Positions 2,249-54,684 of a DNA stretch of 64,000 nt are shown here, piece after piece (positions within the stretch are counted from its first letter, which is position 1; every line of letters starts with the position of its first letter). Made by a program: the position numbers and the translations under genes. The notes under the pieces were generated by a model. It saw nothing but the letters and a program-made list of their open reading frames with translations. It did no database searches and was not told the DNA's origin. Origin of the DNA: Proteobacteria bacterium UBA6156 (GTDB lineage Bacteria; Pseudomonadota; Alphaproteobacteria; UBA2136; UBA6156); contig DIUO01000031.1 of NCBI GenBank assembly GCA_002422365.1, forward strand, positions 11,263-75,262, written 5' to 3'.

Positions 2249-3304
2249 ATGAGTACTCTCGGATTTGTCCGTATCGTTCAGCCCACCGCCCCTGTGGCGG
2301 GCGGTTTTGTGCCTTTGCCGGAGATACGGATTGGCAGCCACTTGTTGGAAAATAACACCGTTCTGGCGCCGATGACGGAGATTACCGACCGCCCGACGCG
2401 GTTGCTGAACAAAATTTACGGGGCCGGGCTGGTGGTGAGCGAAATGGTGGCCGCCGAAGGTGTGGTGCGGCAAGCCGCAGTGGCGGCGCAGAAGGCGACC
2501 TTTGACCCGCGCCAGGGTGTGCACAGCGTGCAGATTGTGGGCGGCGACCCTACCAACATGGGTGTGGCGGCGCGGGTGAATGAGCAGGCCGGGGCGGATG
2601 TTATTGACATTAACATGGGTTGCCCGGTGAAAAAGGTGGTGAACTGCATGGCCGGCAGTGCCCTGATGCGCGAGCCGGAGCTGGTGGAGCGGATTGTGGG
2701 CGAGGTGGTGGAAAAGGTGAGTATTCCGGTGACGCTGAAAACGCGCTTGGGCTGGAATGAAGAGATGAAAAACGGCGTGCAGATTGCCCAAATTGCCGAA
2801 AAATGCGGGGTGAAGTTGCTGGCGATACATGGCCGCACGCGGGCGCAGATGTACACCGGCAGTGCCGACTGGGCGGCGATACGGAAGATTAAGGAGGCGG
2901 TGAGTATTCCGGTTTTGGTGAATGGGGATATTCATACGATTGACGATGCGATTGAGGCGCTGCGGCAGAGTGGCTGCGACGGTGTGATGATTGGCCGCGC
3001 GACCCAGGGCAAGCCCTGGCTGCTGGGGCAGGTAGCGCATTACCTGAAGACCGGTGAGCGGCTGCCCGACCCGAGCTTGGAAGAGCAATGCGAAGTGGTG
3101 TGCGAGCATATTGCGCTGGCGGTGGAGCTGTATGGGGAGTTTAGCGGCATTCACCACATGCGCAAGCACGTGGCGGGTTATACCAAGGGATTGGTTGGTG
3201 GCCGTGAGCTGCGGATGAAGCTGAATGAGATGACTGAGGCGGCGGTGATGCAGGAGGGGGTGCGGGCGTTGTTCCGGGGGCAGGAGATGGGTGTTAGGGA
3301 TTAG
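2249..3304 (+). CDS. dusB: tRNA-dihydrouridine synthase B (NifR3 family)
   Basis: ORF 2213..3304, with ATG 2249 chosen. [23 protein letters not shown] and [11 protein letters not shown] motifs are typical of Dus FMN enzymes. Confidence 0.9.
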
Positions 3305-3306
3305 GA
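3293..3306 (+). repeat. heptamer pair GTTAGGG-ATTAGGA (GTTAGAR family, weak)
   Basis: Two units. The dusB stop TAG 3302-3304 lies inside the second unit. Confidence 0.3.
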
Positions 3307-3329
3307 AAACCCCGGTGAGCCGGGGTTTT
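3306..3329. terminator. bidirectional intrinsic terminator (dusB / small - strand ORF)
   Basis: AAAACCCCGG-tgag-CCGGGGTTTT. A perfect 10-bp stem with A/T runs on both sides, between convergent genes. Confidence 0.8.
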
Positions 3330-3367
3330 ACAGTTTTCGAAATGTGGACTGATTACTACTCAGACCA

Positions 3368-4358: not shown

Positions 4359-4393
4359 GTGAACAGTGAACAGTGAACAGTGAACAGTGAATA
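4359..4393 (+). repeat. heptamer tandem array (GTGAACA)x4 + GTGAATA
   Basis: Counted unit by unit. Begins immediately after the fis-like stop (TAA 4356-4358). Followed by the terminator hairpin 4395-4418. Confidence 0.95.
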
Positions 4394-4394
4394 G

Positions 4395-4418
4395 GGTGCC
4401 CTTAGGGGCGCTTTTTTT
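4395..4418 (+). terminator. intrinsic terminator after fis-like gene
   Basis: GGTGCCC-ttag-GGGCGCT (7 bp including 2 G-U pairs) followed by T7. Confidence 0.6.
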
Positions 4419-4516
4419 GCGTGCGGTATGCGGGTGCTTGTGTGGTGGGCGCGGGGGGTGGCGTTTTGCGGGATTTCTGGCAGAGTGGGCGTTGTTAATG
4501 ACTCGAGGATGACGGC

Positions 4517-8350: not shown

Positions 8351-8378
8351 GTGAACAGGTAACAGTGAACAGTGAACA
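8351..8378 (+). repeat. heptamer tandem array GTGAACA-GGTAACA-GTGAACA-GTGAACA
   Basis: Starts 8 nt after the ntrX stop (TAG 8340-8342). Followed by the terminator hairpin 8382-8403. Confidence 0.9.
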
Positions 8379-8381
8379 GGA

Positions 8382-8403
8382 CTCGCCTACGGCGGGTTTT
8401 GTT
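8382..8403 (+). terminator. intrinsic terminator after ntrX
   Basis: CTCGCC-tac-GGCGGG followed by TTTTGTT. Confidence 0.5.
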
Positions 8404-8419
8404 CTTAAAGGGGGTTAAA

Positions 8420-8965
8420 ATGATGCGGACGGTGAGTTTTGATGGGGCGGGGGTGCAGGTGCTGACGCTGGTTTATGGTCGGGATGAGCAGGGGCGTGTG
8501 TTGATGCTGGAGCGGGGGGCGCATAAGACATTTTTGCCCGGATGGTTTGTGGGCGTTGGGGGGAAGGTTGAGGCTGGTGAGAATGTGTTTGATGCCGCTG
8601 CGCGGGAATTTGAGGAAGAAACAGGGTTGCGGGCGGTGGGTTTGAGCCTGCGCGGGAGTTACACCTTTATGACTGAGACGGCGGACAACCGTTGTGGGGT
8701 GATTTATTTGTTTGAGTGTGCGGTGGAAGGTGATTTTGTGGCCGAGGTAGCCGACGGCACGCTGCATTGGTTGACGGTGGCGGAATTGTTGGCGCATGAC
8801 AAGGTGATGCCTGACCACAAGGTGTGGATGGGGCAGATTTTTACGAACAGCACCCATTTTGCGTGTGTGGGGAGTTGGAAGCCGCCGGTGGAGGGGACGC
8901 TGAATGTGGGGGAGGAGTGGGCGGATAGCCGGGGGTATTTTGAGGGGTTAGAAGTTAGAGGTTAG
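8420..8965 (+). CDS. NUDIX hydrolase
   Basis: Nudix box GGKVEAGENVFDAAAREFEEETGL. ATG 8420 chosen because the ORF-track start 8372 lies inside the heptamer array and terminator. The last codons and the stop are encoded by the GTTAGAR array. Confidence 0.8.
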   Translation: MMRTVSFDGAGVQVLTLVYGRDEQGRVLMLERGAHKTFLPGWFVGVGGKVEAGENVFDAAAREFEEETGLRAVGLSLRGSYTFMTETADNRCGVIYLFECAVEGDFVAEVADGTLHWLTVAELLAHDKVMPDHKVWMGQIFTNSTHFACVGSWKPPVEGTLNVGEEWADSRGYFEGLEVRG

Positions 8966-8981
8966 AGGTTAGAAGTTAGAT
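8947..8981 (+). repeat. heptamer tandem array GTTAGAA-GTTAGAG-GTTAGAG-GTTAGAA-GTTAGAT
   Basis: Five units. The NUDIX stop TAG 8963-8965 lies inside unit 3, and the last residues ...LEVRG are encoded by the repeat. Confidence 0.95.
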
Positions 8982-9012
8982 TGGGTATGTGGGTTGGAGA
9001 GGTTTGTGGGGG

Positions 9013-9282: not shown

Positions 9283-9789
9283 ATGGGGAGATTGGAGCGG
9301 GCGTTTTTTGAGCGGGATGTTGTTGAGGTGGCGCGGGCGTTGCTGGGGTGCTTGCTGGTGCATGAAGTGGCGGGTGTGCGGCGGGTGGGGCGGATTGTGG
9401 AGACCGAAGCGTATTTGGCGGAAGGGGATGCGGCGGCGCATGTGGCTTATGGCAAGAAGGCTTCGGTGCGGGCTTTGGAGGCTGGGCCGGGGACGTTGTA
9501 TGTTCACCCCATGAGGCAATATGTGGGCATGGACATTGTGGCGCGCGGCGGGAGTGTGCTGGTGCGGGGGCTTGAGGTTGTGGAAGGCATGGTGGGCCCA
9601 CTGGATGGGCCGGGGAAGTTGACGCGAGCATTGGGGGTGACGCGCGACTATGATGGTGTGGATGTGGTGACGGCTGGCCGGATTTGGGTTGAGGCTGGGG
9701 AGGTGATGGGCGAGATTGGGGTGGGGCCGCGGGTTGGGATTACGCGGGATGTGGGGTTGGAATTGCGGTTTCGGGTTTTGAGGGGTTAG
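9283..9789 (+). CDS. mpg: DNA-3-methyladenine glycosylase (Mpg/AAG family)
   Basis: N-terminus RLERAFFERDVVEVARALLGCLLVHE and the ~168-aa size are typical of the Mpg family. ATG 9283 lies within ORF 9274..9789. Confidence 0.75.
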   Translation: MGRLERAFFERDVVEVARALLGCLLVHEVAGVRRVGRIVETEAYLAEGDAAAHVAYGKKASVRALEAGPGTLYVHPMRQYVGMDIVARGGSVLVRGLEVVEGMVGPLDGPGKLTRALGVTRDYDGVDVVTAGRIWVEAGEVMGEIGVGPRVGITRDVGLELRFRVLRG

Positions 9790-9798
9790 AGGTTAGAT
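9785..9798 (+). repeat. heptamer pair GTTAGAG-GTTAGAT
   Basis: Contains the mpg stop (TAG 9787-9789) and, on the complement, the TAA stop (9786-9788) of the convergent gene. Confidence 0.7.
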
Positions 9799-10868
9799 TG
9801 GGGGTGGGGGCTTGGCTGCGGAGCCGTGTGGAGAAGTTCGGGGTAGTATTTTTCGAGGAGATTTATATTGGTCCATAACACTTGCCAGCCCTGTAGCATT
9901 TTATGGATAGGCTCCAAATTGGTGAGATTGATGTTGAAGCGTGCAGTTGGCAGATAGTCGATTATGGTTGTTGGGACAAAAACAAACATATTGTTGTCTT
10001 GAATGATCAGTTCCATGGTCGGAAGGTCGTTGAAAGAGCCGTTGCACTCGAGCAGATCATGTAAAAACTCTGGTTTAAGGAGTTTGTGGGCTTCATGAAC
10101 TTCGTGCCGTGTGTAAGCATTAAAAGTATTTTCAGTCTTCTCGCAGGGTAGCGGAAGGGCATTCCACTTTTTATTGGTTAGCTTAGATTGTTCGAAGGTG
10201 AGAAGTAATGATGTGGGGGCTGAATGAAGGAGTTTGATATGAATGCAAATACCATCGAATAAATTGATGAGATCGGGGTAATTGCTAAAAATTGATGATT
10301 TGGCGTATTTGAGTTCTAGAATGTGAACCTCGAACGGGGTTGCGCCGATGAAACCATATGCGGTGAGAGGATTATGGAGAACAGATATGTCCTCTTTAAA
10401 TATCTTTTTGAAAAGCTTAATGCTTACGTTGCCGGGACTTTTATAAGGTATCGCCAATTGGTTGAATACAGAGGGGATGACTACGTTGAAATACCTTTTG
10501 GAAATGCGAGTTGCGAAGAATAAATAGGGTGAGGTGACTAAAAATGCGATAAGCGAAACAACTAATTTTCTGCTACGGCGTTTCGCTACGATTTGGGAAA
10601 AGAATTTACCAAGGGGTGTTAAGACGGGTGATAGCAAAGTTAAGATGCCGAACTTGCCTGCCAATGTGTAACCCACGCCCCAAAATGGTATGCTGATGAT
10701 TGCTACGATGTAGCCTATTACAACCCTTTTAAACGTGATGGAACGGCTGACTTCAAGGACCTTAAGTTGGGATTTGAGCTGCTTAAGACGTTCGGCAGAC
10801 CATTGCAGTTCTTCTAGGGGAAGTCCCTTTTCGTATATTTCCTCCGAGGGCGAGGAAATTACCGGCAT
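9786..10868 (-). CDS. membrane protein, DUF3137-like (tentative), AT-rich
   Basis: ORF 9786..11021. Realistic starts are ATG 10868 (7 nt after the coxIII stop) or ATG 10886 (overlapping it). N-terminal coiled segment, then hydrophobic helices (VVIGYIVAIISIPFWGV, LVVSLIAFLVTSPYLFF). FNAYTRHEVHEAHKLLKPEFLHDLLE resembles the DUF3137 pattern recalled from memory. Much lower GC than its neighbours. Confidence 0.5.
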   Translation of the reverse strand: MPVISSPSEEIYEKGLPLEELQWSAERLKQLKSQLKVLEVSRSITFKRVVIGYIVAIISIPFWGVGYTLAGKFGILTLLSPVLTPLGKFFSQIVAKRRSRKLVVSLIAFLVTSPYLFFATRISKRYFNVVIPSVFNQLAIPYKSPGNVSIKLFKKIFKEDISVLHNPLTAYGFIGATPFEVHILELKYAKSSIFSNYPDLINLFDGICIHIKLLHSAPTSLLLTFEQSKLTNKKWNALPLPCEKTENTFNAYTRHEVHEAHKLLKPEFLHDLLECNGSFNDLPTMELIIQDNNMFVFVPTTIIDYLPTARFNINLTNLEPIHKMLQGWQVLWTNINLLEKYYPELLHTAPQPSPHPQSNL

Positions 10869-10875: not shown

Positions 10876-11664
10876 TTAGAGGACATAGATGAAGAGGAAG
10901 AGGCCGATCCAGACGACGTCGACGAAGTGCCAGTACCAGGCGGCGGCTTCGAAGTAGAAGTGGTTGTGGCGGGAGAAGTCTTTTTTAGCCAGACGGTAGT
11001 GCACGAACATGAGCATGACACTGCCCAGCAGCACGTGGAAGCCGTGGAAGCCCGTGAGCATATAGAAGATGGTGCCGTAGGCGCCGCTGCTGATGCTGTA
11101 GCCCGCGTGTTGGTACTCCAGCATTTGGCAAAACAGGAAAATGACGCCGAGTTGCCAGGTGAGGAAGGTGTAGAACGTGGCCTGAGCCCGGCGGCTGTGC
11201 AGCAAGGCGTGGTGGGCCAGCGTGACCGTGACGCCTGAGGTGAGCAAGAGCAGCGTGTTGATGACGGGCAGGTGGATGGGGAGGAGTTCTATCCCCACCG
11301 GTGGCCAGACGGGGGCGTGCATGCGCATGTAAAAATAGGCGGCGAAGAAGGCGGCGAAGAACATGACTTCGGACGCGATGAAGAAGATCATGCCGTAGCG
11401 ATTGGCGAGGTCTAGCACCAGGGGCACCGCGCCGGGGGCGTAGCCGCGTTGGCGGGATTCTTTGATCAGCATGAAAAACCAGGCCATGGCGCCCGCCATG
11501 AGTAACCCAAGACCCGCCACCAGGGTGAGCTGGCCGTAGAGGGCGGGTTGGATGTGGAGCATCATGACCACGCCAAAAGCGACTAAGCCGCCGCCCAGGC
11601 AGGAGAGGGGCGGCCAGATGGAGGGGGCGGGGATGTGGAAGTCGTGGTCGGCGTGGTGGGACAT
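10876..11664 (-). CDS. ctaE: cytochrome c oxidase subunit III
   Basis: 262 aa. Seven-TM pattern with HGFHVLLG, FEAAAWYWHFVDVVW and the HHADHDFH N-terminus, typical of subunit 3. Confidence 0.9.
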   Translation of the reverse strand: MSHHADHDFHIPAPSIWPPLSCLGGGLVAFGVVMMLHIQPALYGQLTLVAGLGLLMAGAMAWFFMLIKESRQRGYAPGAVPLVLDLANRYGMIFFIASEVMFFAAFFAAYFYMRMHAPVWPPVGIELLPIHLPVINTLLLLTSGVTVTLAHHALLHSRRAQATFYTFLTWQLGVIFLFCQMLEYQHAGYSISSGAYGTIFYMLTGFHGFHVLLGSVMLMFVHYRLAKKDFSRHNHFYFEAAAWYWHFVDVVWIGLFLFIYVL

Positions 11665-11674
11665 GGGGGTGCTT

Positions 11675-11716
11675 GTGTTTGGTGTTTAGTGTTTGGTGTT
11701 TTGGTGTTTAGTTTTG
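11675..11716 (+). repeat. heptamer tandem array GTGTTTG/A (about 6 units, partly degenerate)
   Basis: GTGTTTG GTGTTTA GTGTTTG GTGTTTT GGTGTTTA GTTTTGG. Lies between the coxIII start (11664) and the stop of the upstream - strand ORF (complement of 11708-11710). Confidence 0.85.
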
Positions 11717-12046
11717 GGGGGGGTGGACGAGGGAGGGGTCGTCGTATTCCGGCAGGCGGAGGCCTTTGTAGTCGTATTGGATGCGGGTGCCGAATTCGCG
11801 GACGTAGTCTGTCCCCCGCGTGTGGCCGGGGCCGCCGAGGTAGGTGATGAGGATAAAGAAGTAAACCAGCGCGCCGCCGATGCCGATGATGAGCATCTTC
11901 ATGAACACGGCGTAGGTTTGGGTGTAGTCGGCGTGCAAAGCGGCTTTGTTGTAGTGCAGTTTTTCGTGCAATTTTTCTGGTGCGTGCACGGCGGCGGGAG
12001 CCTTGGCGGCAGGTTTTTTACTGCTGGACTTGGTAGGTTGCGCCAT
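11708..12046 (-). CDS. single-pass membrane protein, unknown function
   Basis: ATG 12046 follows a strong AAGGAGG. K/A-rich N-terminus, one TM (FMKMLIIGIGGALVYFFILITYL). The stop TAA lies inside the heptamer array 11675-11716. Directly upstream of coxIII. Confidence 0.5.
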   Translation of the reverse strand: MAQPTKSSSKKPAAKAPAAVHAPEKLHEKLHYNKAALHADYTQTYAVFMKMLIIGIGGALVYFFILITYLGGPGHTRGTDYVREFGTRIQYDYKGLRLPEYDDPSLVHPPQN

Positions 12047-12215: not shown

Positions 12216-12243
12216 GTGAACAGTGAACAGTGCACAGTGAACA
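12216..12243 (+). repeat. heptamer tandem array GTGAACA-GTGAACA-GTGCACA-GTGAACA
   Basis: In the divergent spacer between the - strand small ORFs/cox cluster and prfB. Not adjacent to a stop codon. Confidence 0.9.
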
Positions 12244-12313: not shown

Positions 12314-13427
12314 ATGCAGCCGGACATACGGGATTTGGTGGGACAGATAGAGCAGGGGTTGGCCTTGCTCGGGAGGAGCCTTTGACCTGCCGGTAGCAAG
12401 GGCACGGATTAATGAACTTGATGTAATGGCCCAGGATGCAAGCCTGTGGGCCGATGCCAACCGCGCCAAAACCGTGATGCAGGAAAAGCGCAAGTTGGAG
12501 GTTCAGGTTGGCACGTATGACGACATTAAACGGCGGCTGGATGATGCCCTGGCGCTGATGGAGCTGGGGGAAGAAGGCAAAGATGCCGCCCTGGTGGCTG
12601 AGGGTGAGGCTGAATTGCAGAGCTTGGTGGTGGATTCTAAGAAACTGGAGACCCAGTGCCTGTTGGGTGGTAAAATGGACGGCAACAACGCCTACCTTGA
12701 AGTGCACGCCGGGGCCGGCGGCACCGAAAGTTGTGACTGGGCGGGGATGCTGCTGCGGATGTATATGCGCTGGGCCGAGCGGCAAGGTTTTAAGGTGAGC
12801 ATGGTGGATGAAACTCCTGGTGAGCAAGCCGGTGTGAAAAGCGCCACGATTATGATTGAAGGCACCTTTGCTTATGGGTTGGCGAAGACGGAGACGGGGG
12901 TGCATCGGTTAGTGCGCATTAGCCCCTTTGACAGCAATGACCGCCGCCACACCAGCTTTGCCAGCGTGTTTGTGTACCCCGAGGTGGACAACACGATTGA
13001 AATTGAAATTGATATGAGCAAAGTGCGGGTGGACACGTTTAGGAGCAGCGGGGCGGGGGGGCAGCATGTAAACACCACCGACAGCGCGATTAGGATGACC
13101 CACCTGCCCAGCGGCATTGTGGTGGCCTGCCAGCAAGACCGCAGCCAACACCGCAACCGCGATATTGCCCTGCAAATGCTGAAGGCAAGGTTGTATGAAC
13201 TGGAGTTAAGCAAGCAAGACGCCGAACGCGACGCCGTGGAAGCCACCAAAACCGACAACAGCTGGGGGCACCAGATACGCAGCTATGTGTTGCAACCCTA
13301 CCAGATGGTAAAAGATTTACGCACCGGAGAGGAAACGAGTAATACCGCTGCGGTGTTAGATGGTGATATTGATGGCTTTATACAGGCGGCGCTTGCTGCC
13401 AAGGTTGGGAATACCCGGCAGGCTTAA
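12314..13427 (+). CDS. prfB: peptide chain release factor 2 (programmed +1 frameshift)
   Basis: Frame 1 runs ATG 12314 to CTT 12380-12382 then TGA 12383-12385 (MQPDIRDLVGQIEQGLALLGRSL*). After a +1 shift, reading continues from GAC 12384 into ORF 12426..13427. GGQ motif SGAGGQHVNTTDSA. Confidence 0.95.
12371..12386 (+). promoter_or_regulatory. prfB: prfB +1 ribosomal frameshift site (SD-like GGGAGG + CTT TGA C)
   Basis: GGGAGG at 12371-12376 is followed by the slippery CTT-TGA-C at 12380-12386, matching the classical RF2 autoregulatory site. Confidence 0.9.
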
Positions 13428-13462
13428 CGGGTGTTGCCGAATTTGTTGAACCGATAAGGAAC

Positions 13463-16400
13463 GTGCACCAGGTGGTTTGGAAGCGCAGGGCAGTGGTGTG
13501 GGGCGGCTTGAGCGGCGGCACGCTGGCTGTGCTGGTGCTGGCCGTTGTGGCGCTGTTTGTGTGGGCGGCCAAGGAATATACGCGGGTTCACCCGCTGGAT
13601 TTGACTGCCCGCTTGCCGCAGGTGCAGGCGTATTTGTTGCCCCAAGGCATTGCTTTGCAGGCTGAAAAGGCGGAGTTGTTTTTTGATGACGGGCCAGTGC
13701 TGCGGATAAGCGGATTGGGAGTGAGCGGGCCGGATGGCAGTCTGGGCGTGTTTGTGGAAAATATTGCTGTTAAGTTTGCAACGACTCAGCTGCTGGCGCT
13801 GAAGCTGGCACCCAAAGACATAACTGCGCAAGGCGCGACGCTGCGTGTGGTGCGGGAGGCCGACGGCATGAGTGTGGCCGGGTTTGAATTTGAAAATAAC
13901 GGCGGCAAGCGGCCCCCCGGTGTGGTGAATTGGTTGAACAGCTTAGGCTGGGGCGATGCCTGGGGCCGCCTGAAAAAAGTGCAAGTGACAAACCTGAACC
14001 TGCTGGTGCGCGACGACGTGCAGAACGCCGAATGGGTGCTGGAAAATGGCAGGATGGCAATGAGCCGCTACCCGGATGATGGCGAAAAAGGGACGGTGAG
14101 CGCCTTTGTGCGGCGGCTTTATGGCGACGATGATGCCACCAAAACGTTGGACAATGTGCCGGTGCTGGTGAGGTTTGAGCACGGCGCGCGCGCGCCCTAC
14201 ATGGTGCTGCAAGGCCGCCTTGACCATGCCGATGCGCGGATGGTGACGGATTATTTTCCGCCCCAGTTTAAGGATTTGCTGCAAGCCCAGGGGCAAGTGG
14301 AAATTGGTACACGCTTGCTGGAGGATAATAAGCTGGAGCGGCCTTGGGTGTCGCTTGGCCTGACCGATGTGAAGGTGCAGCCGGGGAAGGCTTATGGGGC
14401 TCCGTTGGATTTTAAAAAGCTGGATGTGACCGCAAGTTATGTGCCGCCCGTGGCCGGAGTGAGCGGGACTGATGTGCTGCTGGTGAGGGATTTGCGGTTG
14501 GTGACGGGGCGGGGGGCTTTGGTGGCGGCTTCTGGCACCCTAACCGGATTGCAGGGCGGGCCGATGCTGGTGGATGTGAGTTTGGTGAGCCCGGAAGGTG
14601 ATGTGCAGGGGGTGTTTGATTTCTTCCCCGACCAAATGCGTGGCTTTGCCAAGGCGTTGGAATGGTTGCGGCCGCATATTATGGGGGGCGAGTATGCCAA
14701 CCTGGTGGCGCGCTACCGGGGTGACCCCCACGAGCTGCCGCATTGTGCCGATGCCTGCGGTGTGCTGGAGGTGGATGCGGCGTTTACGGGGGGGAAAGTG
14801 CGGTATTTGGACCCGATGGCCCCAGCTGAAATGCCCGAAGGCCGCATGCAATGGCGCGGCCAAACGCTGGAAATTACCGCGCCGGAAGGGCGCATTGGGA
14901 CGCAGGTGGCGCGCGATGTGGTGTTCAGGTTGAGCCATATATTTGATGTGGTGCCGACGGAGATTTTTGTGAGCAGCAAGCTGCAAGGGCCTGCCGCCGA
15001 GGTGATGGCTGAGCTAAGCAAGCTGGACGGGTTGGCGGATGATTTGCCGCGGGGCCTTGGCGGCACGCAGCGCAGTGCCTTTGCGGTAACCGTGCCGCTG
15101 GGACGGGGCCAGCCGACGACCTTTGCCAGCAGCACCGTGCTGGTGAGCGGGACGGTGGACGATGTGAGTTTGCGGGGGTATGCGCCGTTGCAGGGGCTCG
15201 ATTTTACGGGCGATAAGGCGGAGTTTACGCTGGATGCCGCCAAGCGCCTGCGTGTGGTGACGCAAGGGCAGCTGGATGGGCTGCCGATGGCGGTGGACTG
15301 GAGTATGGGTATTCAGCCCCATGAGCCCAGCCTGATGGCGCTGCGGGCCGAAGGCCGAGTGGCCGGGAGCTGGCTGGTGCAAAGGGCCGACACCGAGGCC
15401 CTGGATGTGGATGGCCCGGTGGGGGTAACGCTGGAGGCGCGGCAGCGGGCCGACAAGACATGGGAATTTGATGCCCAAGCCGATGGGCGTGGGGCGGTGG
15501 CGATGATACCTGCCGTGGGCTACGCCAAGCCCCTGGGCAAGCCGCTGGATGTGGCCGTGAAAGGAACATTGAGTGAAGGGCGAGTGCCCGATGTGGCCAG
15601 CCTGGATGTGAAAGGGGAGGGCATTAGCCTGCAAGGCAGCGGCGGGCCCGGCCGCCTGAACGTGCCCAATGTGGTGCTGGGGCGTAGCCGCCTGAGCCTG
15701 ACGCTGGCGGATGAGGTGCTGGTGCTGAAGGGGGCGGTGTTGGATCTTTCTGGCTTGGATGTGTTGCAGCGGGAGGGCGGGGCGGAGCCTTTGGTGGAGA
15801 ATTTGCGAATAAAGGCGGACATTGACCGTGTGCTGGTGAAAAACGGCACGCTGGACGGGATGAGTGCGGTGATTTTGCTGAAAAACGGTGACTGGGCCGT
15901 GCAAAAGCTGAACGCCACTGTGGAGGGTACGCCCGTGGCCCTGGAGCGCAAGCCGCTGCCCGGCCAGCCTGACCGCAGCCGCATGACGGTGGCGGTGGCG
16001 GATTTGGGGCGGACGCTGAAAGCGCTGGGGGTTTATCATTCTCTGGAAGGGGGGCGTTTGCAGGGGGAGATGAATTATGACAGCCCGACCGTGGGTGGGG
16101 GTGTGGTGCGGATTGAGGAGTTTACGTTGGATAACCCTTCGCTTTTGGTGCAGATATTGAGTTTGTTGAGCTTGGAGCAGTTGCTTTCTGGCAGCAGCAG
16201 CACGATGTTTAAGCAGGCGACGCTGCCGCTGCGGGTGGATGGGCCAGTGTGGTATTTGGACAATGCCAGCCTGGAAGGGCCGAGCATGGATATGCGCCTG
16301 ACCGGCACCTATGACCAACAGCAGCATATGCTGAACATTGATGGGAAGTTGGCGCCGGGGATTCCGCTTAACCGTTTGGTGAGCAAGATACCGTTGCTGG

Positions 16401-16570: not shown

Positions 16571-17022
16571 GATTGGGGATGCTGTGTGTGGCCCTGGTGC
16601 TGCTGGCAGGGTGTGGGGAGGCGCAGGATGGGCCGCCCAAGCTGCCGCCCGAGATATCGCAAGGCCAACCCCAAGACCTGCCGCGTGTGGCGCTGCAAGT
16701 GGGGACTGTGAAGGTGCAGGCCCAAGTGGCCGACGACGATGACGAGCGGGCCAAGGGGCTGATGTTTGTGCGTGCCATGCCGGAAGATGAAGGCATGCTG
16801 TTTGTGTGGCCGGAGAAGGCGGAGCGGAGTTTTTGGATGCGGAATACGTATATTCCACTGGATTTGCTGTTTATTGATGGGCGGCGGATTGTGCGGATTG
16901 TGCAGGGGGTGCCGCTGGATGAGAGTGCGTTACCTTCTGGCCAGCCGGTGGATAAGGTGCTGGAGATGAATGCCGGGTGGGCTGCGCGGAGGGGGGTTAA
17001 GGTGGGGGATTTAGTGTTTTAG
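16567..17022 (+). CDS. DUF192 family protein (lipoprotein signal)
   Basis: MRLGMLCVALVLLAGC lipobox. GMLFVWPEKAERSFWMRNTYIPLDLLFID matches the DUF192 core pattern. Confidence 0.75.
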   Translation: MRLGMLCVALVLLAGCGEAQDGPPKLPPEISQGQPQDLPRVALQVGTVKVQAQVADDDDERAKGLMFVRAMPEDEGMLFVWPEKAERSFWMRNTYIPLDLLFIDGRRIVRIVQGVPLDESALPSGQPVDKVLEMNAGWAARRGVKVGDLVF

Positions 17023-17055
17023 TGTTTGGTGTTTTTGTTTTGTTTTTAGTTTTTT
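17014..17055 (+). repeat. degenerate GTGTTTN heptamer/octamer array
   Basis: GTGTTTTA GTGTTTG GTGTTTTT GTTTTGTTTTTAGTTTTTT. Contains the DUF192 stop (TAG 17020-17022) and the dsbD stop (complement of 17046-17048). Confidence 0.75.
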
Positions 17056-21913: not shown

Positions 21914-22453
21914 ATGACCTGTTATGAAACCGCTGTGTTTGACACCGCCGAGGCTGCCCTGCACTGGGCCGTGGAAGTGCTGCGCCGCCGCCGCCTGCCG
22001 CGCAACAGCAGCCTGTGGCGCGAGCTGGTGCAGGAAGCGGAAGACGTGGAGCGCCAGTGGGGCCTGGCCCGCAATATGCTGATACCGACCGACCCGGATG
22101 AGCGGCTGGGGCTGGCGCTGGATATTATGGAAGCGTTGGCCGGGCTGGACAGTGCCGACGCCCTGCTGCTGCGCCAATGGAGCATGGGAGACTGGGCCGA
22201 TGAGATGCGCTTGCGCGTGGCATTGGAGATTCAGGAGCGGTTGCGGCGGCAAGGGGTGCGGGTGCGGCTCAGCTACCGTTACAGTTATGACCAGCTGAGT
22301 GTGCTGGCCAAATGCCACAGAAAAACGGCCTGGCGGCGTGTGCAGAAGGCGCTGGAGCACTTGCAGCTTGCCTTGCAGGTGAAGGGTGTGGTGATGCGGG
22401 TGGAGGCGCCGGAGAGTGGGCTTGGTAACTGGGAGATGGGACTTAGGAGTTAG
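21914..22453 (+). CDS. hypothetical protein with sigma region-4-like HTH (tentative)
   Basis: ATG 21914 after GAGAAAGGA. The ORF-track start 21758 overlaps the ybjQ terminator. YSYDQLSVLAKCHRKTAWRRVQKALEHLQLAL looks like an HTH. Stop lies inside the heptamer repeat. Confidence 0.45.
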   Translation: MTCYETAVFDTAEAALHWAVEVLRRRRLPRNSSLWRELVQEAEDVERQWGLARNMLIPTDPDERLGLALDIMEALAGLDSADALLLRQWSMGDWADEMRLRVALEIQERLRRQGVRVRLSYRYSYDQLSVLAKCHRKTAWRRVQKALEHLQLALQVKGVVMRVEAPESGLGNWEMGLRS

Positions 22454-22462
22454 GAATTAAGG
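22442..22462 (+). repeat. heptamer triplet CTTAGGA-GTTAGGA-ATTAAGG, followed by GGTTTGGCA x2 (22464-22481)
   Basis: Contains the TAG 22451-22453 of the + ORF and the zur stop (complement of 22450-22452). Confidence 0.6.
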
Positions 22463-26522: not shown

Positions 26523-26765
26523 ATGGCTGCTAAAGGTGTGAAGAATTTGCAGGAGGCCTTTTTGGCGCACCTGGCCAAAGGCCATGCGCCTGTGACGGTG
26601 TTTTTAACCAATGGGGTTAAACTTTCCGGGAATATCACCTACGTGGACGCCGATGCTCTGACGCTGGCCCGCGATGGGGTGACGCAATTGATATTCAAGC
26701 ACGCCATTGCGACTGTGATGCCGCAGGATGCGTTTAGCATTTATGATTTGATGGGCGGCGAATAG
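26523..26765 (+). CDS. hfq: RNA chaperone Hfq
   Basis: ATG 26523 within ORF 26472..26765. NLQEAFLAHLAKGHAPVTVFLTNGVKLSGNITYVD...LARDGVTQLIFKHAIATVMP is an Sm1/Sm2 core of alphaproteobacterial type. Confidence 0.95.
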   Translation: MAAKGVKNLQEAFLAHLAKGHAPVTVFLTNGVKLSGNITYVDADALTLARDGVTQLIFKHAIATVMPQDAFSIYDLMGGE

Positions 26766-26806
26766 TGCTTGGTGTTTAGTGTTTCGTATTTAGTGTTTCG
26801 TGTTTG
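26765..26806 (+). repeat. heptamer tandem array GTGCTTG-GTGTTTA-GTGTTTC-GTATTTA-GTGTTTC-GTGTTTG
   Basis: Six units. The first G is the last base of the hfq stop (TAG 26763-26765). Confidence 0.9.
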
Positions 26807-28209: not shown

Positions 28210-28223
28210 GTGAGCAGTGAACA
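28210..28223 (+). repeat. heptamer pair GTGAGCA-GTGAACA
   Basis: Starts 4 nt after the hflX stop (TAG 28203-28205). Confidence 0.5.
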
Positions 28224-33188: not shown

Positions 33189-33223
33189 TTTAGAAGTTAG
33201 AAGTTAGAGGTTAGAGGTTAGAC
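33189..33223 (+). repeat. heptamer tandem array TTTAGAA-GTTAGAA-GTTAGAG-GTTAGAG-GTTAGAC
   Basis: Five units. Begins immediately after the TGA 33186-33188 of the GH3-like gene. Confidence 0.95.
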
Positions 33224-36570: not shown

Positions 36571-36610
36571 GTGTTTTGGTGTTTTCGTTTTTCGTGATTT
36601 CGTTTTTTTT
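36571..36610 (+). repeat. degenerate GTGTTTY/GTTTTTC array
   Basis: GTGTTTTG GTGTTTTC GTTTTTC GTGATTTC GTTTTTTTTT. Lies 25 nt upstream of the glyA start. Confidence 0.6.
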
Positions 36611-37986: not shown

Positions 37987-38010
37987 GGGGGCGGTGCGCT
38001 GGGGATGGCC

Positions 38011-41408: not shown

Positions 41409-41508
41409 GGGCGGATTTTAAGCCAGATAGGTAGGTGGGGCAAGCAACCTGCCGGTTTGGCGGGCGGGGGTGTGGTTTATTTATAGCTGGAAGGTGATTT
41501 GATTATTT

Positions 41509-41609
41509 GCCTCCGGCGGGCCTCCCGGCGGGGGTGGGCCCCGGATAGGTAGCGGGGCCCGGCAAAAAATGGGATTTTTTGCCACCCACTAACCTTCCGG
41601 GGTGACGCC
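41509..41609 (+). repeat. short structured repeat upstream of ORF 41073..41408/accB
   Basis: GCCTCCGGCGGGCCTCCCGGCGGGGGTGGGCCCCGGATAGGT, then AGCGGGG-CCC-GGCAAAAAAT-GGG-ATTTTTTGCC-ACCCACT, ending AACCTTCCGGGGTGACGCC. Confidence 0.9.
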
Positions 41610-41661
41610 AACCCACGATTTGGTGCTTATTAGCTCGTAATTCTTAATAAATGGTTAGGTT

Positions 41662-49767: not shown

Positions 49768-51064
49768 GAATTTGGCAGCCTGGATACGTTGGCCCGTGAT
49801 TTGCGGTGCCCTGTTGCTGATTATAGCCGTGGTGGTGCCACCGCTGAGCGGCAACACCGAAACCAGTGCCGATGCCCCAGGCCTGGTAACCAACATGCGT
49901 GTGGGCCAGGACGGTGGCCGCACCCGCGTGGTGTTTGAGTTTACGGAAAGCACCCGTGAGAGCGATTTTAATTACAGATGGTTTACGCTGCCCAAGCCTG
50001 CGCGGGTGGTGATTGATTTTGAAGATGATATTGCTTTTAAGGATTCGCCCAGCCTGTTGAAGCTGCCCGGAGACGGCTTGGCGGAGGGCCTGCGCGCAGG
50101 GCGCTTTAGGCCCGGCACGGTGCGGATGGTGCTGGATTTGCGGGCGCAGGGGCGCGTGAATGTGTTTAGTATACCTGCACGTGGCGGCATGGGCCCAAGG
50201 TTGGTGATTGACCTTGTGAAATTGAAGCCCGGCCAGAAGCCGACCGATGTGCCTCCGCCGCTGGATGTGGTGACGCAAGGTGAAGCCCCGGCTGTGCACC
50301 CCCAGACCTTGGATGAAGAACCCGCGCCCGTGGTGCCGCCGCAAGTGACGCGCGACATGAGCGGCAACAAACGCCAACACGCCGTGGTGGTGCTGGATGC
50401 CGGACACGGCGGTGTGGACCCCGGCGGGTGCAGCAAGGTGATTAACCTGTGCGAAAAAGGCCTGACGCTGGAAATGGTGAAGCTGGTGAGGGAGCGCCTG
50501 CGCAGCGACCGCATTGAAGTGGTGCTGACGCGCGAGACCGATGTGTTTATACCTTTGGCCGAGCGCCCGCGCATTGCCCAGCGCGCCGGTGCCGACCTTT
50601 TTGTGAGCCTGCATGCGGATATTCACCCCACCAAAACCGATGTGAAGGGGGCCACCGTATATATGGTGAGTGAAAAAGCCAGTGACCGCGAAGCCGCCCG
50701 CCTGGCCAACAGCGAAAACGACCGCGACGTGATGGCTGGTGTGGCATTGGCGAATGAAAGCCGCGAGGTGCAGAATATTTTGATTTCTCTGGTACAGCGC
50801 GACACGCTGAACAGCTCTACCTATTTAGCCAGAAGTATTCTGGACGACTTGGATAAGTTTACGGAAGTGCGCAAAAAGGATGTGCTGTATGCCGGGTTTA
50901 GAGTGCTGAAAAGCCCAGATGTGCCGAGTGTGCTGGTGGAGATGGGGTATTTGTCGAACCCGACGGAGGCGCGAAAACTTTCTAATGCATTATACCGTAA
51001 GCGCTTGGCCGATGCGATTGCCATGGGGATACGGAATTATGTGGAGAAGCATGTGCATTATTAG
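49757..51064 (+). CDS. amiC: N-acetylmuramoyl-L-alanine amidase (AMIN + Amidase_3)
   Basis: ATG 49757 within ORF 49739..51064. AMIN-like RVVFEF...VVIDF. Catalytic VVVLDAGHGGVDPG, SLHADI, GYLSNP. Confidence 0.9.
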   Translation: MRSENLAAWIRWPVICGALLLIIAVVVPPLSGNTETSADAPGLVTNMRVGQDGGRTRVVFEFTESTRESDFNYRWFTLPKPARVVIDFEDDIAFKDSPSLLKLPGDGLAEGLRAGRFRPGTVRMVLDLRAQGRVNVFSIPARGGMGPRLVIDLVKLKPGQKPTDVPPPLDVVTQGEAPAVHPQTLDEEPAPVVPPQVTRDMSGNKRQHAVVVLDAGHGGVDPGGCSKVINLCEKGLTLEMVKLVRERLRSDRIEVVLTRETDVFIPLAERPRIAQRAGADLFVSLHADIHPTKTDVKGATVYMVSEKASDREAARLANSENDRDVMAGVALANESREVQNILISLVQRDTLNSSTYLARSILDDLDKFTEVRKKDVLYAGFRVLKSPDVPSVLVEMGYLSNPTEARKLSNALYRKRLADAIAMGIRNYVEKHVHY

Positions 51065-51099
51065 TGTTTAGTTTTTAGTGTTTGGTGTTTAGTTTTTTA
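51064..51099 (+). repeat. heptamer tandem array GTGTTTA-GTTTTTA-GTGTTTG-GTGTTTA-GTTTTTTA
   Basis: The first G is the last base of the amidase stop (TAG 51062-51064). Confidence 0.9.
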
Positions 51100-51739: not shown

Positions 51740-54250
51740 ATGGCCATGAACCGAAAGGGCAGTGCACGCCCGCAAAGCCGTGGAGGCGCCTCGAAGAGTC
51801 GTTCTCCGCACAAACTGCCCAAGGTGGTGGTGGTTTTGGCGTGGCTGGTGGCTTTGGGGTCTCTGGCCTTTGGGGCCTTGGTAGGTGGCGTGCTGGTGTA
51901 TTATGATAGCCAGCTGCCGGATTTTCGGCAACTGAGCGAATATAAGCCCCCGCTGATAACCCGCGTGTATGACCGCAATGGCGAGATTGTGGCGGAATAT
52001 GCCAATGAGCGCCGGATTTGGATGCCCTACCGTGAGATACCGAAGCCGGTGATTGAGAGTTTTCTGGCGGCTGAAGATACGCATTTTTATGAGCACGGCG
52101 GCTATGACCTGAAGGCGATTGTGCGCGCCGCGCTGATGAATGCCATGACCGACCGCACCCAAGGCGCCAGCACCATTACGCAACAGGTGGCCAAAACCTA
52201 TTTGCTGAGCAGCGAGCGCACTTACACCCGCAAGATTAAGGAGCTGATTTTAAGCTGGCGGATTGAAAAGGCTTATATGAAGAATGAGATATTGGAGTTG
52301 TATCTTAACCGGATTTACCTGGGCAACGGCAGCTATGGTGTGGCGGCGGCGGCGCAGACTTATTTTAGCAAAACCCTGGATGAGCTGACCCTGCCCGAGC
52401 GTGCCATGATTGCCGGCATGCCCCAAGCCCCCAGCCGCTATAACCCCGTGCGCAACCCCAGCGCCGCCAAGGCCCGCCGCGATATAGTGCTGCGCCGCCT
52501 GGAAACGGAAGGATTTATTACCAAAGCCGAAGCCGATGCAGCCATTGCCATGCCCCTGGGCCTGAACATAAGCCCGCTGAAGCAAGGTGAAGATGCGCCG
52601 CACTTTGCGGAGTATATTCGGCAACTGGTGCTGAAGGAGTATGGCGAGAAGGCTTTGTATCAGGACGGGTTGAGTGTTTATACCACGCTGGACCTGCCGA
52701 CCCAGCGGCGTGCTGAAGAGGCCGTATATAATGGATTGCGCGCCTATGACCGCAGGCATGGTTGGCGCGGGCCGCTGCAACACCTGAAAACGCTTGAGGG
52801 GTGGCAGAAGGAGGTTGATGCTCTGGCCGAGACCTATGCCCACAGTTGGCGGATTGGTGAGCCTGCCGTGGTGCTGAAAGTGAGTGCCGACAGTGCCCGT
52901 GTGGGCCTGAGTGATGGCCGCGAAGGCACCGTGGCGCGTACCACGGCCAAGTGGACGGGCAAGGGGGCGTTGAACGGATTTTTGAAAACCGGGGACGTGG
53001 TGTTTGTGAAAGCCGTGAAAGACGGTGGCAAGGATTACAGCCTGGAACAACTGCCTGCCGTGCAAGGGGCGCTGGTGGCGCTGGACGTGCGCACCGGCGA
53101 AGTGCTGGCGATGGTAGGTGGCTTGGGTGAAGGTGTTGGCTTTAACCGGGCGGTGATGGCGCGGCGCCAAGTGGGCAGTGCGTTTAAGCCGGTGGTGTAT
53201 GCCGAGGCGCTGGAGAAGGGGTATACGCCCGCCAGCACGGTGCTGGATGCGCCGCTGGTGTTCAGCACCAATGGCAAAGAGTGGAAGCCGCATAACTATG
53301 ACCATAAGTTTACCGGCATGACCACCCTGCGCCAGGGACTGGAGCAAAGCCGCAACCTGATGACCGTGCGCCTGGCCCAAGACCTGGGCATGCGCAGTGT
53401 GGCCGACCTGGGCCGCCGCATGGGGCTGAAGGGTGTGCCGATAACGGATCTTTCGGCCGTGTTGGGCAGCATTGACCATACGTTGATGGAAATGACGAGT
53501 GCTTACAGTGTCTTCCCCCGTGGTGGCGATTATATTGAGCCGACATATTTGCGGCGGGTGCAGGATTCTCAGGGGGTGACGCTGTTTAGGGCCCACCCGG
53601 CGTGCGAGAACTGCCTGGCGCAGCTGGGTGCAAGCCCGGAGAAGCCCCCAGTGCTGCCGAAAACCGAAGGCACCCAGGCGCTTGACCCGCAAACCGCTTA
53701 CCTGATGACCAACATGCTGCAAGGTGTGGTGCTGCGAGGCACCGGCTATAGCCTGACCAGCCTGGGCAGGCCGCTGGGTGGCAAAACCGGAACGACCAAC
53801 AATTATGTGGATGCCTGGTTTGTAGGGTTTAGCCCCAGCCTGGCTGTGGGCGTGTGGGTAGGCTATGACACGCCGAAGGGCTTGGGCCATGGTGAAACCG
53901 GAAGCCGTGCGGCCTTGCCGATTTGGAAGGATTTTGCGGAGGCGCAATTTAAGGGTGCGCCGATTGAAGGCTTTAGTGTGCCGCCGGGGATAGAGTTTGT
54001 GAGGGTAGATGCGCGTAGCGGCCTGCTGCCGGGCATGGCCACCGAAAAGGTGATAACCGAAGCCTTTAAGGAAGGCACCGCCCCGACCGAAGTGACGCCG
54101 AACTACGTGGAAGGCACAGGGTATGACATGTATATGAACGACAGCGGCAGTTACGACACGGAACAGCCGGGTGAGGCCCGCCCCGAAGGCCAGAGGCCCG
54201 CGCCGGTGAACCCGATTGAGAACCTGCTGCGGACGTTTGGGATATTCTAG
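51740..54250 (+). CDS. mrcA: penicillin-binding protein 1A (bifunctional transglycosylase/transpeptidase)
   Basis: 836 aa. EDTHFYEHGG, RKIKE, GSAFKP (SxxK), KTGTTN. Confidence 0.95.
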   Translation: MAMNRKGSARPQSRGGASKSRSPHKLPKVVVVLAWLVALGSLAFGALVGGVLVYYDSQLPDFRQLSEYKPPLITRVYDRNGEIVAEYANERRIWMPYREIPKPVIESFLAAEDTHFYEHGGYDLKAIVRAALMNAMTDRTQGASTITQQVAKTYLLSSERTYTRKIKELILSWRIEKAYMKNEILELYLNRIYLGNGSYGVAAAAQTYFSKTLDELTLPERAMIAGMPQAPSRYNPVRNPSAAKARRDIVLRRLETEGFITKAEADAAIAMPLGLNISPLKQGEDAPHFAEYIRQLVLKEYGEKALYQDGLSVYTTLDLPTQRRAEEAVYNGLRAYDRRHGWRGPLQHLKTLEGWQKEVDALAETYAHSWRIGEPAVVLKVSADSARVGLSDGREGTVARTTAKWTGKGALNGFLKTGDVVFVKAVKDGGKDYSLEQLPAVQGALVALDVRTGEVLAMVGGLGEGVGFNRAVMARRQVGSAFKPVVYAEALEKGYTPASTVLDAPLVFSTNGKEWKPHNYDHKFTGMTTLRQGLEQSRNLMTVRLAQDLGMRSVADLGRRMGLKGVPITDLSAVLGSIDHTLMEMTSAYSVFPRGGDYIEPTYLRRVQDSQGVTLFRAHPACENCLAQLGASPEKPPVLPKTEGTQALDPQTAYLMTNMLQGVVLRGTGYSLTSLGRPLGGKTGTTNNYVDAWFVGFSPSLAVGVWVGYDTPKGLGHGETGSRAALPIWKDFAEAQFKGAPIEGFSVPPGIEFVRVDARSGLLPGMATEKVITEAFKEGTAPTEVTPNYVEGTGYDMYMNDSGSYDTEQPGEARPEGQRPAPVNPIENLLRTFGIF

Positions 54251-54266
54251 GGGAAGGGGGCAAGAC

Positions 54267-54653
54267 ATGAGATTGCCCCCCAACCACCCCGCGCTGGAGT
54301 GGAGTTTTGTGACCGCCGGCGGCCCCGGCGGCCAGCATGTGAACAAGGTGGCCACCGCCGTGCAGCTGCGCGTGCATGTGGCCAAGCTGGGGCTGCCGGA
54401 GTGGGCGGAGGCGAAGCTGCTGGCCAAGGCGGGGAAGGAGGGGGTGCTGGTGATTTTGGCACGGCGGTTTAAATCTCAGATACTTAATCGGAATGATGCG
54501 TTAGCGCGTTTGGAAGTGATGATTGCGAAGGCGTTGCATGTGCCGAAGGTGCGGCGGGCGACCAAGCCGACGCGGGCGAGTGGGGAGCGGCGGTTGGTGG
54601 CGAAGACGGTGCGGGCGGGGGTGAAGAAGTTGCGGGGACGGGTGGTGGAGTAG
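54267..54653 (+). CDS. arfB: alternative ribosome-rescue factor ArfB (peptidyl-tRNA hydrolase)
   Basis: ATG 54267 within ORF 54216..54653. GGPGGQHVNKVATAV GGQ motif. Basic C-terminal tail. 128 aa. Confidence 0.85.
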   Translation: MRLPPNHPALEWSFVTAGGPGGQHVNKVATAVQLRVHVAKLGLPEWAEAKLLAKAGKEGVLVILARRFKSQILNRNDALARLEVMIAKALHVPKVRRATKPTRASGERRLVAKTVRAGVKKLRGRVVE

Positions 54654-54684
54654 TGTTTTGGTGTTTAGTCTTTAGTTTTTTTTA
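54653..54684 (+). repeat. heptamer tandem array GTGTTTTG-GTGTTTA-GTCTTTA-GTTTTTTTTA
   Basis: The first G is the last base of the arfB stop (TAG 54651-54653). Directly followed by the long mosaic element 54697-54867. Confidence 0.85.

Follow-up and report, generated by a model that had tools for sequence, protein, structure and literature searches.

Heptanucleotide tandem arrays of a single chromosomal polarity at gene ends in an alphaproteobacterial lineage

Introduction

What places short tandem arrays of seven-nucleotide units at the ends of genes, and what keeps all of them on the same strand of the chromosome? The question is raised by a stretch of 64,000 nt (hereafter the window; contig DIUO01000031.1, positions 11,263 to 75,262 of the forward strand) from the uncultured alphaproteobacterium Proteobacteria bacterium UBA6156, whose intergenic DNA carries arrays of the units GTGAACA, GTTAGAR and GTGTTTR. 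An earlier reading of the sequence (the original prediction) had listed fifteen such arrays and described them as strand-locked, anchored on stop codons and new for a genome of this kind. Our analysis favors, with a probability of about 55%, the view that the arrays are lineage-specific heptanucleotide simple sequence repeats (SSRs), kin of the STRR, GGGNATC and TAACTGA arrays of other bacteria, which most likely arose by neutral slippage under positional constraint.

Results

Heptamer arrays are non-random and lie on one strand

The heptamer arrays are real, non-random and statistically robust. Tandem Repeats Finder (TRF) and a period scan of our own recovered period-7 arrays throughout the window at the coordinates listed earlier. 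Seven was the enriched period in our scan, with six strong runs versus two for period 6 and none for periods 4, 5 and 8-12. We then used the three-unit consensus of each family, allowing up to 3 mismatches, with dinucleotide shuffles as the null. This pattern test gave 7 matches for GTGAACA, 7 for GTTAGAR and 10 for GTGTTTR, while the shuffles predict 0.01, 0.00 and 0.03, respectively. All matches are on the + strand, in keeping with the earlier claim that reverse arrays are absent, and a looser scan of the window and of contigs L142, L135 and L013 found no reverse-strand array of any of the three families.

Together with its two extensions, L142 on the right (10 kb) and L264 and L265 on the left (2-4 kb), the window amounts to ~78 kb that contain 17 intergenic arrays and 1 intragenic array of the three unit families. 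Every intergenic array (17/17, of which 15 are in the window, 1 in L142 and 1 in L264) is oriented along the + strand, which is the G-rich one (binomial p = 3e-5, computed on the first 16 arrays). The unit copy number spans 2 to 9 or more. Independent assemblies (JGI 3300001605 and several Sequence Read Archive runs) contain contigs that are 99.97-100% identical to the window and carry identical arrays, so that an assembly artefact is excluded. In terms of class, we are dealing with heptameric intergenic SSRs similar to long SSRs and STRR elements: head-to-tail 7-nt repeats in at least 2-3 copies, far above chance, mostly intergenic, with one unit at many loci of the genome, unit-step changes in copy number and sporadic presence among relatives.

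Base composition and the strand lock

The base composition of the window shows a strong asymmetry (G 36.8%, C 22.2%), and its GC skew is +0.18 to +0.35 in each 4-kb segment, independent of gene strand. Given the intergenic composition (A.205, C.185, G.345, T.264), the forward/reverse likelihood ratio per unit is 18 for GTGTTTG and 2.7 for GTTAGAA, but only ~1.1 for GTGAACA. Because of this last value, composition alone is insufficient to account for the strand lock. Nor is the polarity simply that of the neighboring gene, because the array at 11675 lies in a - strand operon and still has + polarity.

The asymmetry extends beyond the window, as the GC skew is +0.17 to +0.35 across the window, L009-L014, L135-L143 and L264, again independent of gene strand. 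The clade consists of alphaproteobacteria with ~58-60% G+C known only as metagenome-assembled genomes (MAGs), and such an extreme skew is unusual in itself. The AT skew drops to -0.2 to -0.27 at a cluster of - strand genes (38-50 kb).

Arrays adjoin the ends of open reading frames

A gene map was built from Pfam scans, gene calls on identical contigs and synteny. On this map, 12 of the 15 arrays in the window share bases with a + strand stop codon or come very close to one. In roomy spacers the arrays hug the left-hand (5') open reading frame (ORF) (Fisher-combined p = 5e-7), and at + strand gene stops they lie 0-8 nt from the stop. Likewise, in the two large convergent spacers (arrays at 51064 and 54653) it is at the stop of the + strand gene that the array sits. 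Three arrays are located 4-22 nt upstream of the starts of - strand genes. The DNA that the arrays occupy is the scarce unconstrained sequence just past an ORF boundary, usually the 10-30 nt that separate the stop codon of a leading-strand gene from its terminator hairpin.

Part of this arrangement follows from the units themselves. Every unit holds a stop triplet and three units close all + frames, as the original prediction had correctly worked out. An ORF that enters an array therefore ends within three units, and this accounts for part of the stop "anchoring". The stops of NUDIX, mpg, DUF192, ORF 21914 and sucA do lie inside arrays. As in arrays of the TAACTGA type, there are stops in all forward frames and the overlap with an ORF is confined to its 3' end.

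Individual arrays

The stop codon had been placed inside or directly against the first unit for ten + strand genes. This is correct for the fis-like gene, the GH3-like gene, hfq, the amidase gene, arfB, DUF192 and mpg, whereas the NUDIX stop falls in unit 3 and that of ORF 21914 in unit 2. The array at 4359..4393 (+; (GTGAACA)x4 + GTGAATA) abuts the fis-like stop TAA (4356-58) and takes up the entire spacer between this stop and the terminator hairpin. The GH3-like gene retains its native C-terminus beside the array at 33189..33223 (+; TTTAGAA, (GTTAGAR)x3, GTTAGAC), which abuts its stop TGA (33186-88). In hfq, the amidase gene and arfB, the first base of the array is also part of the TAG. The degenerate GTGTTTR x6 array at 26765..26806 (+), which has a period-14 substructure, begins at the hfq stop TAG (26763-65), the true start of this gene being at 26523. 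In a convergent spacer of 96 nt, the GTGTTTR x5 array at 51064..51099 (+) begins at the TAG of the amidase gene (51062-64), with the stop of the - strand gene 62 nt away. Another convergent spacer, of 244 nt, contains the GTGTTTR x4 array at 54653..54684 (+), which begins at the TAG of arfB (54651-53), has a T-run at its end and is separated from the hisS stop by 214 nt.

In DUF192 and mpg the TAG is inside unit 1, and both arrays also hold the stop of a convergent gene. The degenerate GTGTTTR array at 17014..17055 (+) covers the convergent stops of DUF192 (TAG 17020-22) and DsbD (TAA on the - strand, 17046-48), while GTTAGAG GTTAGAT at 9785..9798 (+) provides the + strand mpg gene with its TAG stop and the convergent - strand DUF3137-like gene with its TAA stop. 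In the array at 8947..8981 (+; (GTTAGAR)x4 + GTTAGAT), the third unit provides the TAG (8963-65) at which NUDIX ends. The array at 22442..22462 (+; CTTAGGA GTTAGGA ATTAAGG) covers the overlapping convergent stops of ORF 21914 (TAG 22451-53) and Fur (TAA on the - strand, 22450-52).

Two genes, ntrX and hflX, had been described as stopping 4-8 nt ahead of an array, and the distances are indeed 8 nt and 4 nt. The array at 8351..8378 (+; GTGAACA GGTAACA GTGAACA GTGAACA) begins past the native ntrX stop TAG (8340-42), and the one at 28210..28223 (+; GTGAGCA GTGAACA) past the hflX stop TAG (28203-05). The latter has only two units, but contig L013 has four at the hflX site, and the two-unit array at 9785 is likewise deemed supported by relatives. 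The proposed array at dusB (3293..3306, +; GTTAGGG ATTAGGA) is weaker. It does overlap the dusB stop TAG (3302-3304) and is followed by a hairpin terminator (3306-3329), but there are no more than two units, both degenerate, and this may not be an array at all; in relatives the hairpin comes straight after the dusB stop.

A correction is needed for the remaining arrays of the window, since those at 11675 and 12216 are not at + gene stops but upstream of - strand start codons, and the one at 36571 precedes glyA. The GTGTTTR x6 array at 11675..11716 (+) fills a 43-nt spacer in a - strand operon, to whose transcription it is antisense, and precedes the COX3 start codon by 10 nt. The COX3 leader (11660-11725, the - strand RNA over the array) is CA-rich, has a minimum free energy of 0 and lacks a clear Shine-Dalgarno (SD) sequence. 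The array at 12216..12243 (+; two GTGAACA, GTGCACA, GTGAACA) is in a divergent region between the start of a small - strand ORF (12193 or 12210) and prfB (12314), and is 5-22 nt upstream of the small ORF's start codon. This oldest GTGAACA array is ~70 nt upstream of the prfB start; prfB itself (release factor 2, RF2; 12314-13427) has a canonical +1 frameshift site CTT TGA C (12379-12385) preceded by the SD-like GGGAGG. The degenerate T-rich GTGTTTY array at 36571..36610 (+) is 19 nt upstream of the glyA start and, at 157 nt from the upstream stop, breaks the rule of adjacency to the 5' ORF.

In the left extension L264, a - strand LplA-B-like gene has a GTGTTTR x3 array (+) upstream of it, 4 nt from its start. 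In the right extension L142, a GTTAGAR x5 array (+) begins at the sucA TAG, fills the spacer and ends 6 nt before the next ATG. It takes the place of the following gene's SD region, although GAGG is present in the array. L142 also has a NUDIX_4 gene (13811-14248), inserted in the 2-oxoglutarate dehydrogenase operon between sucA and sucB. The single intragenic array is a GTGAACA stretch at 14731-14760 of L142, ~4 kb past the right end of the window, in the part of the sucB coding region that encodes an inter-domain linker. A 6-nt variant unit preserves the open frame of this stretch, and GGGGACTT is found on both of its flanks.

Terminators, structure and binding-site candidates

The arrays are not intrinsic terminators, as the original prediction had stated, because separate conserved hairpins stand downstream of them. 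Hairpins with a T-tract come after the arrays at 4393-4421 (+) and 8374-8404 (+), and likewise at 3306-3329 and 26851-26880, the last of which is the hfq terminator, 45 nt beyond its array. The terminator of the fis-like gene is kept in L135, L138, L011 and L009. The ntrX terminator has a folding energy of -21.9 kcal/mol (z = -2.9). Here the array extends into the terminator stem, which is lengthened to 14 bp by pairing of the U-tract with the last GTGAACA unit and GG. The same pairing lengthens the stem at 4393-4421, and in both terminators it is reminiscent of a bidirectional terminator and its A-tract arm.

On folding, no stable structure was predicted for the arrays themselves, and as direct repeats they belong neither with the repetitive extragenic palindromes and their mosaic elements (REP/BIME) nor with MITEs (miniature inverted-repeat transposable elements). 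The search of the whole window against Rfam 15 gave 0 matches at the gathering score. Two candidates for protein binding sites were also tried. The alphaproteobacterial LexA box is GTTC-N7-GTTC, and it is ruled out for GTGAACA by the spacing, which is 7 and not 11. HutP-like (UAG-N4)x3 sites were considered as well; HutP is a Firmicute protein.

Turnover of arrays among relatives

Homologs of HflX, NtrX and NUDIX were found only in records named "MAG: Alphaproteobacteria bacterium", the nearest named genus being Nisaea at ~54% identity. The NtrX homologs are too conserved to split array-bearing from array-free relatives, whereas the NUDIX homologs did so. A protein search of the metagenome contig collection with the YhdP-like gene gave no match.

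Orthologous intergenic regions were compared, as the original prediction had proposed. Contigs L013 and L135, both from one European Nucleotide Archive sample (HflX 93%, NUDIX 87% identical), have arrays at the same sites as the window but with other unit numbers. At the fis site, L135 contains seven units (GTGACCA x4, GTGAACA x2, GTGATCA) versus five in the window, the GTGACCA x4 part being a homogenised variant block. The ntrX array has 3 units in L135 versus 4 in the window and the NUDIX array 3 versus 5, and in L013 the hfq array has 4 clean units versus 6 and the hflX array 4 versus 2. In a third relative, L006 (~86% nucleotide identity), the hfq TAG is followed directly by (AAGTTAG)x9 or more, i.e. 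another family occupies the same site.

The remaining relatives, L014, L011, L009, L136, L138 and L140 (76-85% identity), have the same synteny and terminators and a GC skew of 0.17-0.31, and no arrays were found in these six contigs apart from one degenerate site in L138. At hfq, for instance, L014, L011 and L009 have a 10-30 nt spacer without an array. The exception in L138 is the site upstream of prfB, where the units are GTGACCA CTGAACA GTAGACA. Since the orthologous site carries such degenerate units, the array at 12216 predates the split from L138.

Some ancestral states can be read from these contigs. At the fis site, L138 and L011 have an unrelated 16-nt spacer in front of the same conserved hairpin, and it is this ancestral spacer that the array replaces. 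The NUDIX array overwrote the last ~7 codons of its gene, changing the ancestral ..YFEMLARAA* to ..YFEGLEVRG*, and the ancestral mpg end ..LRFRLI* together with its hairpin was replaced by array sequence. The mpg and NUDIX arrays, which are 840 nt apart, share the 9-nt 5' flank TTTTGAGGG and the 3' flank TTGGG. The mpg segment is flanked by two copies of TTTTGAGGG-(GTTAGAR)n-GTTAGAT-TGGG (8938-8990 and 9776-9805), and mpg is missing at this position in L138, L014 and L011. The flanking copies suggest an array-mediated rearrangement or copying event. At the DUF192/DsbD site relatives have a spacer of 8-11 nt, which in L136 takes the form of a period-7 proto-repeat rich in T. From such a proto-repeat the array of the window appears to have grown. 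Judged by these orthologous sites, the arrays gain and lose 7-nt units, can overwrite C-terminal codons and can be replaced at a site by another family.

The idea that neutral slippage would let unit number and sequence vary freely between close strains holds in part. Copy number and unit family do differ between relatives, as slippage predicts, and the differences in unit count were seen at 87-93% amino acid identity. However, near-identical assemblies carry identical arrays, so the arrays are not hypervariable.

The same units in other phyla

The collections were scanned for (GTTAGAR)x3 in genome contigs and for (GTGAACA)x3 in metagenome contigs. The matches listed are from unrelated phyla and serve as comparison sets; neither scan listed a further contig of the window's lineage. 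Among these matches, (GTTAGAR)n and (GTGAACA)n are common in Bacteroidota, Cyanobacteria, Acidobacteriota, Planctomycetota, Clostridia and diverse metagenome contigs. For at least three GTTAGAR units, the stop of a co-oriented ORF of at least 150 codons was located within -25..+21 of the 5' end of the array in 24 of the 82 matches listed, versus 9 for the mirrored arrangement; random positions give 2.4-3%. For at least three GTGAACA units, the co-oriented stop was present in 37 of the 69 matches listed versus 5 mirrored, and native upstream stops alone gave 16 versus 5. As the co-oriented arrangement exceeds the mirrored one in both scans, proximity to a stop with polarity toward the gene is a general property of such arrays. 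The lock to GC skew is not general, because the skew of the flanks of the listed (GTTAGAR)≥3 matches in other phyla is unrelated to orientation (33 versus 38).

Other features of the region

A GC-rich element of ~100 nt, possibly a dispersed extragenic repeat, is duplicated at 40409-40502 and 41509-41606, 1100 nt apart (96% and 88% identity), with one copy upstream of accC and the other downstream of an M48/TPR protease gene. The stretches without a confidently assigned gene are 13428-14008, 37902-38503 and 41027-41661 (580-635 nt).

Discussion

Origin of the arrays

A lineage-specific burst of SSRs is the best-supported explanation of the anchoring, the register, the rewriting of C-termini, the changes in copy number, the replacement of one family by another and the absence of arrays in relatives, and it does not require a dedicated function. 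Arrays would expand and contract by replication slippage and would occasionally be copied between loci through short microhomology. Their anchoring would have two causes: the free spacer begins at the stop codon, and the TGA or TAG in every unit would limit encroachment on an ORF to at most ~two units before the array itself becomes the stop. Arrays without stop triplets would create repetitive protein tails and be purged. The fixed polarity could result from the polarity of heptamers with respect to ORFs, combined with the predominance of leading-strand genes and an orientation-dependent stability under extreme strand asymmetry. Whether arrays grow in a polar manner at the 5' end was addressed with the order of variant units, which did not establish a direction. 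The arrays are likely to have side effects, namely a longer spacing between stop and hairpin, SD-like GAGG before downstream genes and CA-rich leaders on - strand mRNAs.

Several observations sit poorly with this explanation. Slippage alone fails to account for the same three units at 17 or more loci and for their proliferation in one sublineage, and the burst leaves the strict polarity not fully explained, composition as its sole cause being ruled out for GTGAACA. Of the gene stops in roomy spacers, 9 of 19 on the + strand but 0 of 9 on the - strand have an array abutting them (Fisher p = 0.026), whereas a purely neutral free-spacer model predicts some on the - strand. An in-frame TAG in unit 1 was found in six cases, which exceeds the random-phase prediction. 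Lastly, there is the invariance of the arrays in all near-identical assemblies.

Could the arrays instead be functional cis-elements? They might be multivalent platforms for a protein that binds single-stranded RNA or DNA with a footprint of ~7 nt, for example a cold-shock-domain protein or S1. Bound to the 3' untranslated region (UTR), it would tune termination, antitermination or mRNA stability, and it would bind single-stranded DNA on the lagging-strand template. Being located between the stop codon and the hairpin, the arrays are transcribed; they are predicted to be unstructured, and the hfq stop has an array in three lineages despite the different unit family. CspB reportedly binds one heptamer per protein and prefers GTCTTTG/T and GUCUUUA, a single mismatch away from GTGTTTR (Morgan 2007; Sachs 2012, as cited in PMC4679880), and a polarity independent of gene strand fits binding to single-stranded DNA. 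Csp, S1 or CsrA have also been proposed as binders of TAACTGA arrays (MacGregor 2015, PMC4679880). However, since the three units are unrelated, recognition would call for three specificities or for a relaxed one, close relatives manage the same genes and terminators without arrays, the copy number is unconstrained, and arrays upstream of - strand genes would appear in RNA as the complementary sequence. We consider such a role possible but doubtful. A burst of active dispersal in one sublineage, by ectopic gene conversion, microhomology template switching or a mobile or templated-synthesis system, is unlikely, and slightly more so than a protein-binding role. It would agree with identical units at 17 or more loci in ~78 kb and their absence, bar one degenerate site, from relatives at 76-85% identity, with the flanks that the mpg array has in common with the NUDIX array (9 nt on the 5' and 5 nt on the 3' side) where ancestral sequence was replaced, with a fis spacer that was replaced rather than interrupted, and with the swap of families at hfq in L006. 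Yet the Pfam maps of the window contain no associated transposase or reverse transcriptase, and there are no target-site duplications or terminal inverted repeats in the window. Flank sharing is limited to one pair of arrays, two loci have in-situ proto-repeats, and GGGNATC arrays are not associated with mobile elements (Rehm et al. 2015, PMC4692102).

The two other explanations strike us as very improbable. One is a translational backstop, i.e. selection for closing all three frames after a gene so that readthrough or frameshifted ribosomes are halted. Although three units do stop every + frame and the unit-1 TAG is used by six ORFs, a single extra stop would suffice and 4-6 units are superfluous. 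Furthermore, relatives do without arrays, the window encodes both ArfB and an RF2 whose autoregulatory frameshift site is normal, and 3 of the 17 arrays are upstream of - strand start codons and another is before the glyA start. In the TAACTGA case, stops in all frames are treated as a constraint on placement and not as a function (PMC4679880). The other explanation is that the arrays are polar chromosome signals of replication or segregation, similar to KOPS or Chi, which would account for the strand lock, given that 17/17 are on the G-rich, presumably leading, strand regardless of the orientation of their neighbors. Against this, placement is tied to ORF ends and is not even, the units differ among themselves and vary in copy number, close relatives with the same skew have no arrays, and the same units elsewhere, among the matches listed, are unrelated to GC skew (33 versus 38).

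What the polarity may mean

Since 2007 heptamers have been recognized as the over-represented class of long SSRs in many bacteria, with a puzzling rule of adjacency to the 5' ORF and without an accepted origin or function. In the two collection scans, units that contain stops follow co-oriented stops across phyla. The lineage studied here offers a natural contrast, since its sister genomes have the same genes, terminators and skew but no arrays, which makes ancestral states readable. It is conceivable, if only tentatively, that a directional process coupled to replication or co-directional transcription grows arrays from the ends of leading-strand ORFs, or that the arrays are orientation-specific platforms for single-strand binding. 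If so, the lineage, in which the arrays spread once it had diverged from array-free relatives, would be a natural system for understanding why bacterial heptamer repeats are over-represented and polar, and a polarity that reflects mechanism would link repeat dynamics to the direction of replication or transcription. If not, it would be an example of stop-bearing microsatellites that are filtered into 3' UTR spacers and rewrite protein C-termini.

Comparison with known heptamer systems

The likeness to the STRR elements of cyanobacteria, noted in the original prediction, is apt. STRR units are CCCCAGT, TTGGTCA and CAACAGT, and we know of no report of a stop-codon register or chromosomal polarity for them. 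They are dispersed tandem heptanucleotides of heterocystous cyanobacteria, described in Calothrix PCC 7601 (as cited in PMC4692102). The resemblance lies in three tandem heptanucleotide families spread through the intergenic DNA of one genome. However, the units are different and so is the phylum, an alphaproteobacterium versus Nostocales, so the window arrays are not STRR elements proper. Among the long SSRs of prokaryotes, according to the accounts given in two later papers, heptamers are over-represented in genomes with a higher G+C content as well as in those of non-pathogens, and polymerase slippage is the proposed source (Mrazek et al. 2007, via PMC4692102 and PMC4679880). The arrays share the heptamer unit with that class which, as represented in these accounts, is a statistical one without a positional or polarity rule. 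With the SSRs of contingency loci, which serve phase variation, the arrays share short tandem repeats that change by slippage. But contingency SSRs act as on/off switches of genes from a promoter or the 5' part of a coding region, whereas the arrays here are at the 3' ends and spacers of housekeeping genes, and a change in copy number leaves the ORFs intact.

The GGGNATC/GGGGAYT arrays of Xanthomonas and Nostoc have 2 to 26 units, are ~90% intergenic and almost exclusively adjoin the 5' neighboring ORF on the G-rich strand. They occur at the same loci in related species with differing lengths, and are transcribed, with no known function (Rehm et al. 2015, PMC4692102). The window arrays likewise adjoin the 5' ORF whatever its orientation, with the exception of 36571, and share loci with relatives at differing lengths. 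GGGNATC units have G-tracts that form G-quadruplexes, with a preference for four units (PMC4692102), whereas GTGAACA, GTTAGAR and GTGTTTR are without a run of three or more G and have copy numbers from 2 to 9 or more.

Arrays of TAACTGA, known from Beggiatoaceae, cyanobacteria and Bacteroidetes, were reported at 169 loci, with a single unit recurring at more than 100. Forward repeats have stops in all three frames and hence must sit at ORF ends; the arrays are sporadic among relatives, differ by indels in 7-nt steps and in some cases replace the SD region of the next gene (MacGregor 2015, PMC4679880). Similarly, the units in the window carry stop triplets and overlap the upstream ORF only at its very end, and the arrays are sporadic in relatives, change in 7-nt steps and in some cases replace an SD region. 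In "Maribeggiatoa", however, most arrays are in the sense orientation 1 to few nt upstream of start codons (PMC4679880), while most arrays here are at stop codons and only the sucA array and the one at 36571 are placed in that way. The sequences are also different, with three unit families here versus one in that genome.

The novelty claimed in the original prediction is thus narrower than it seemed. Anchoring at stop codons had already been described (PMC4692102, PMC4679880) and is seen in many phyla. GGGNATC arrays have no preference for the leading or lagging strand and are frequently found in convergent pairs (PMC4692102), whereas the window arrays have one chromosomal polarity and no inverted pairs. 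What the published cases do not have is this strict single polarity (17/17), which here accompanies a very strong GC skew.

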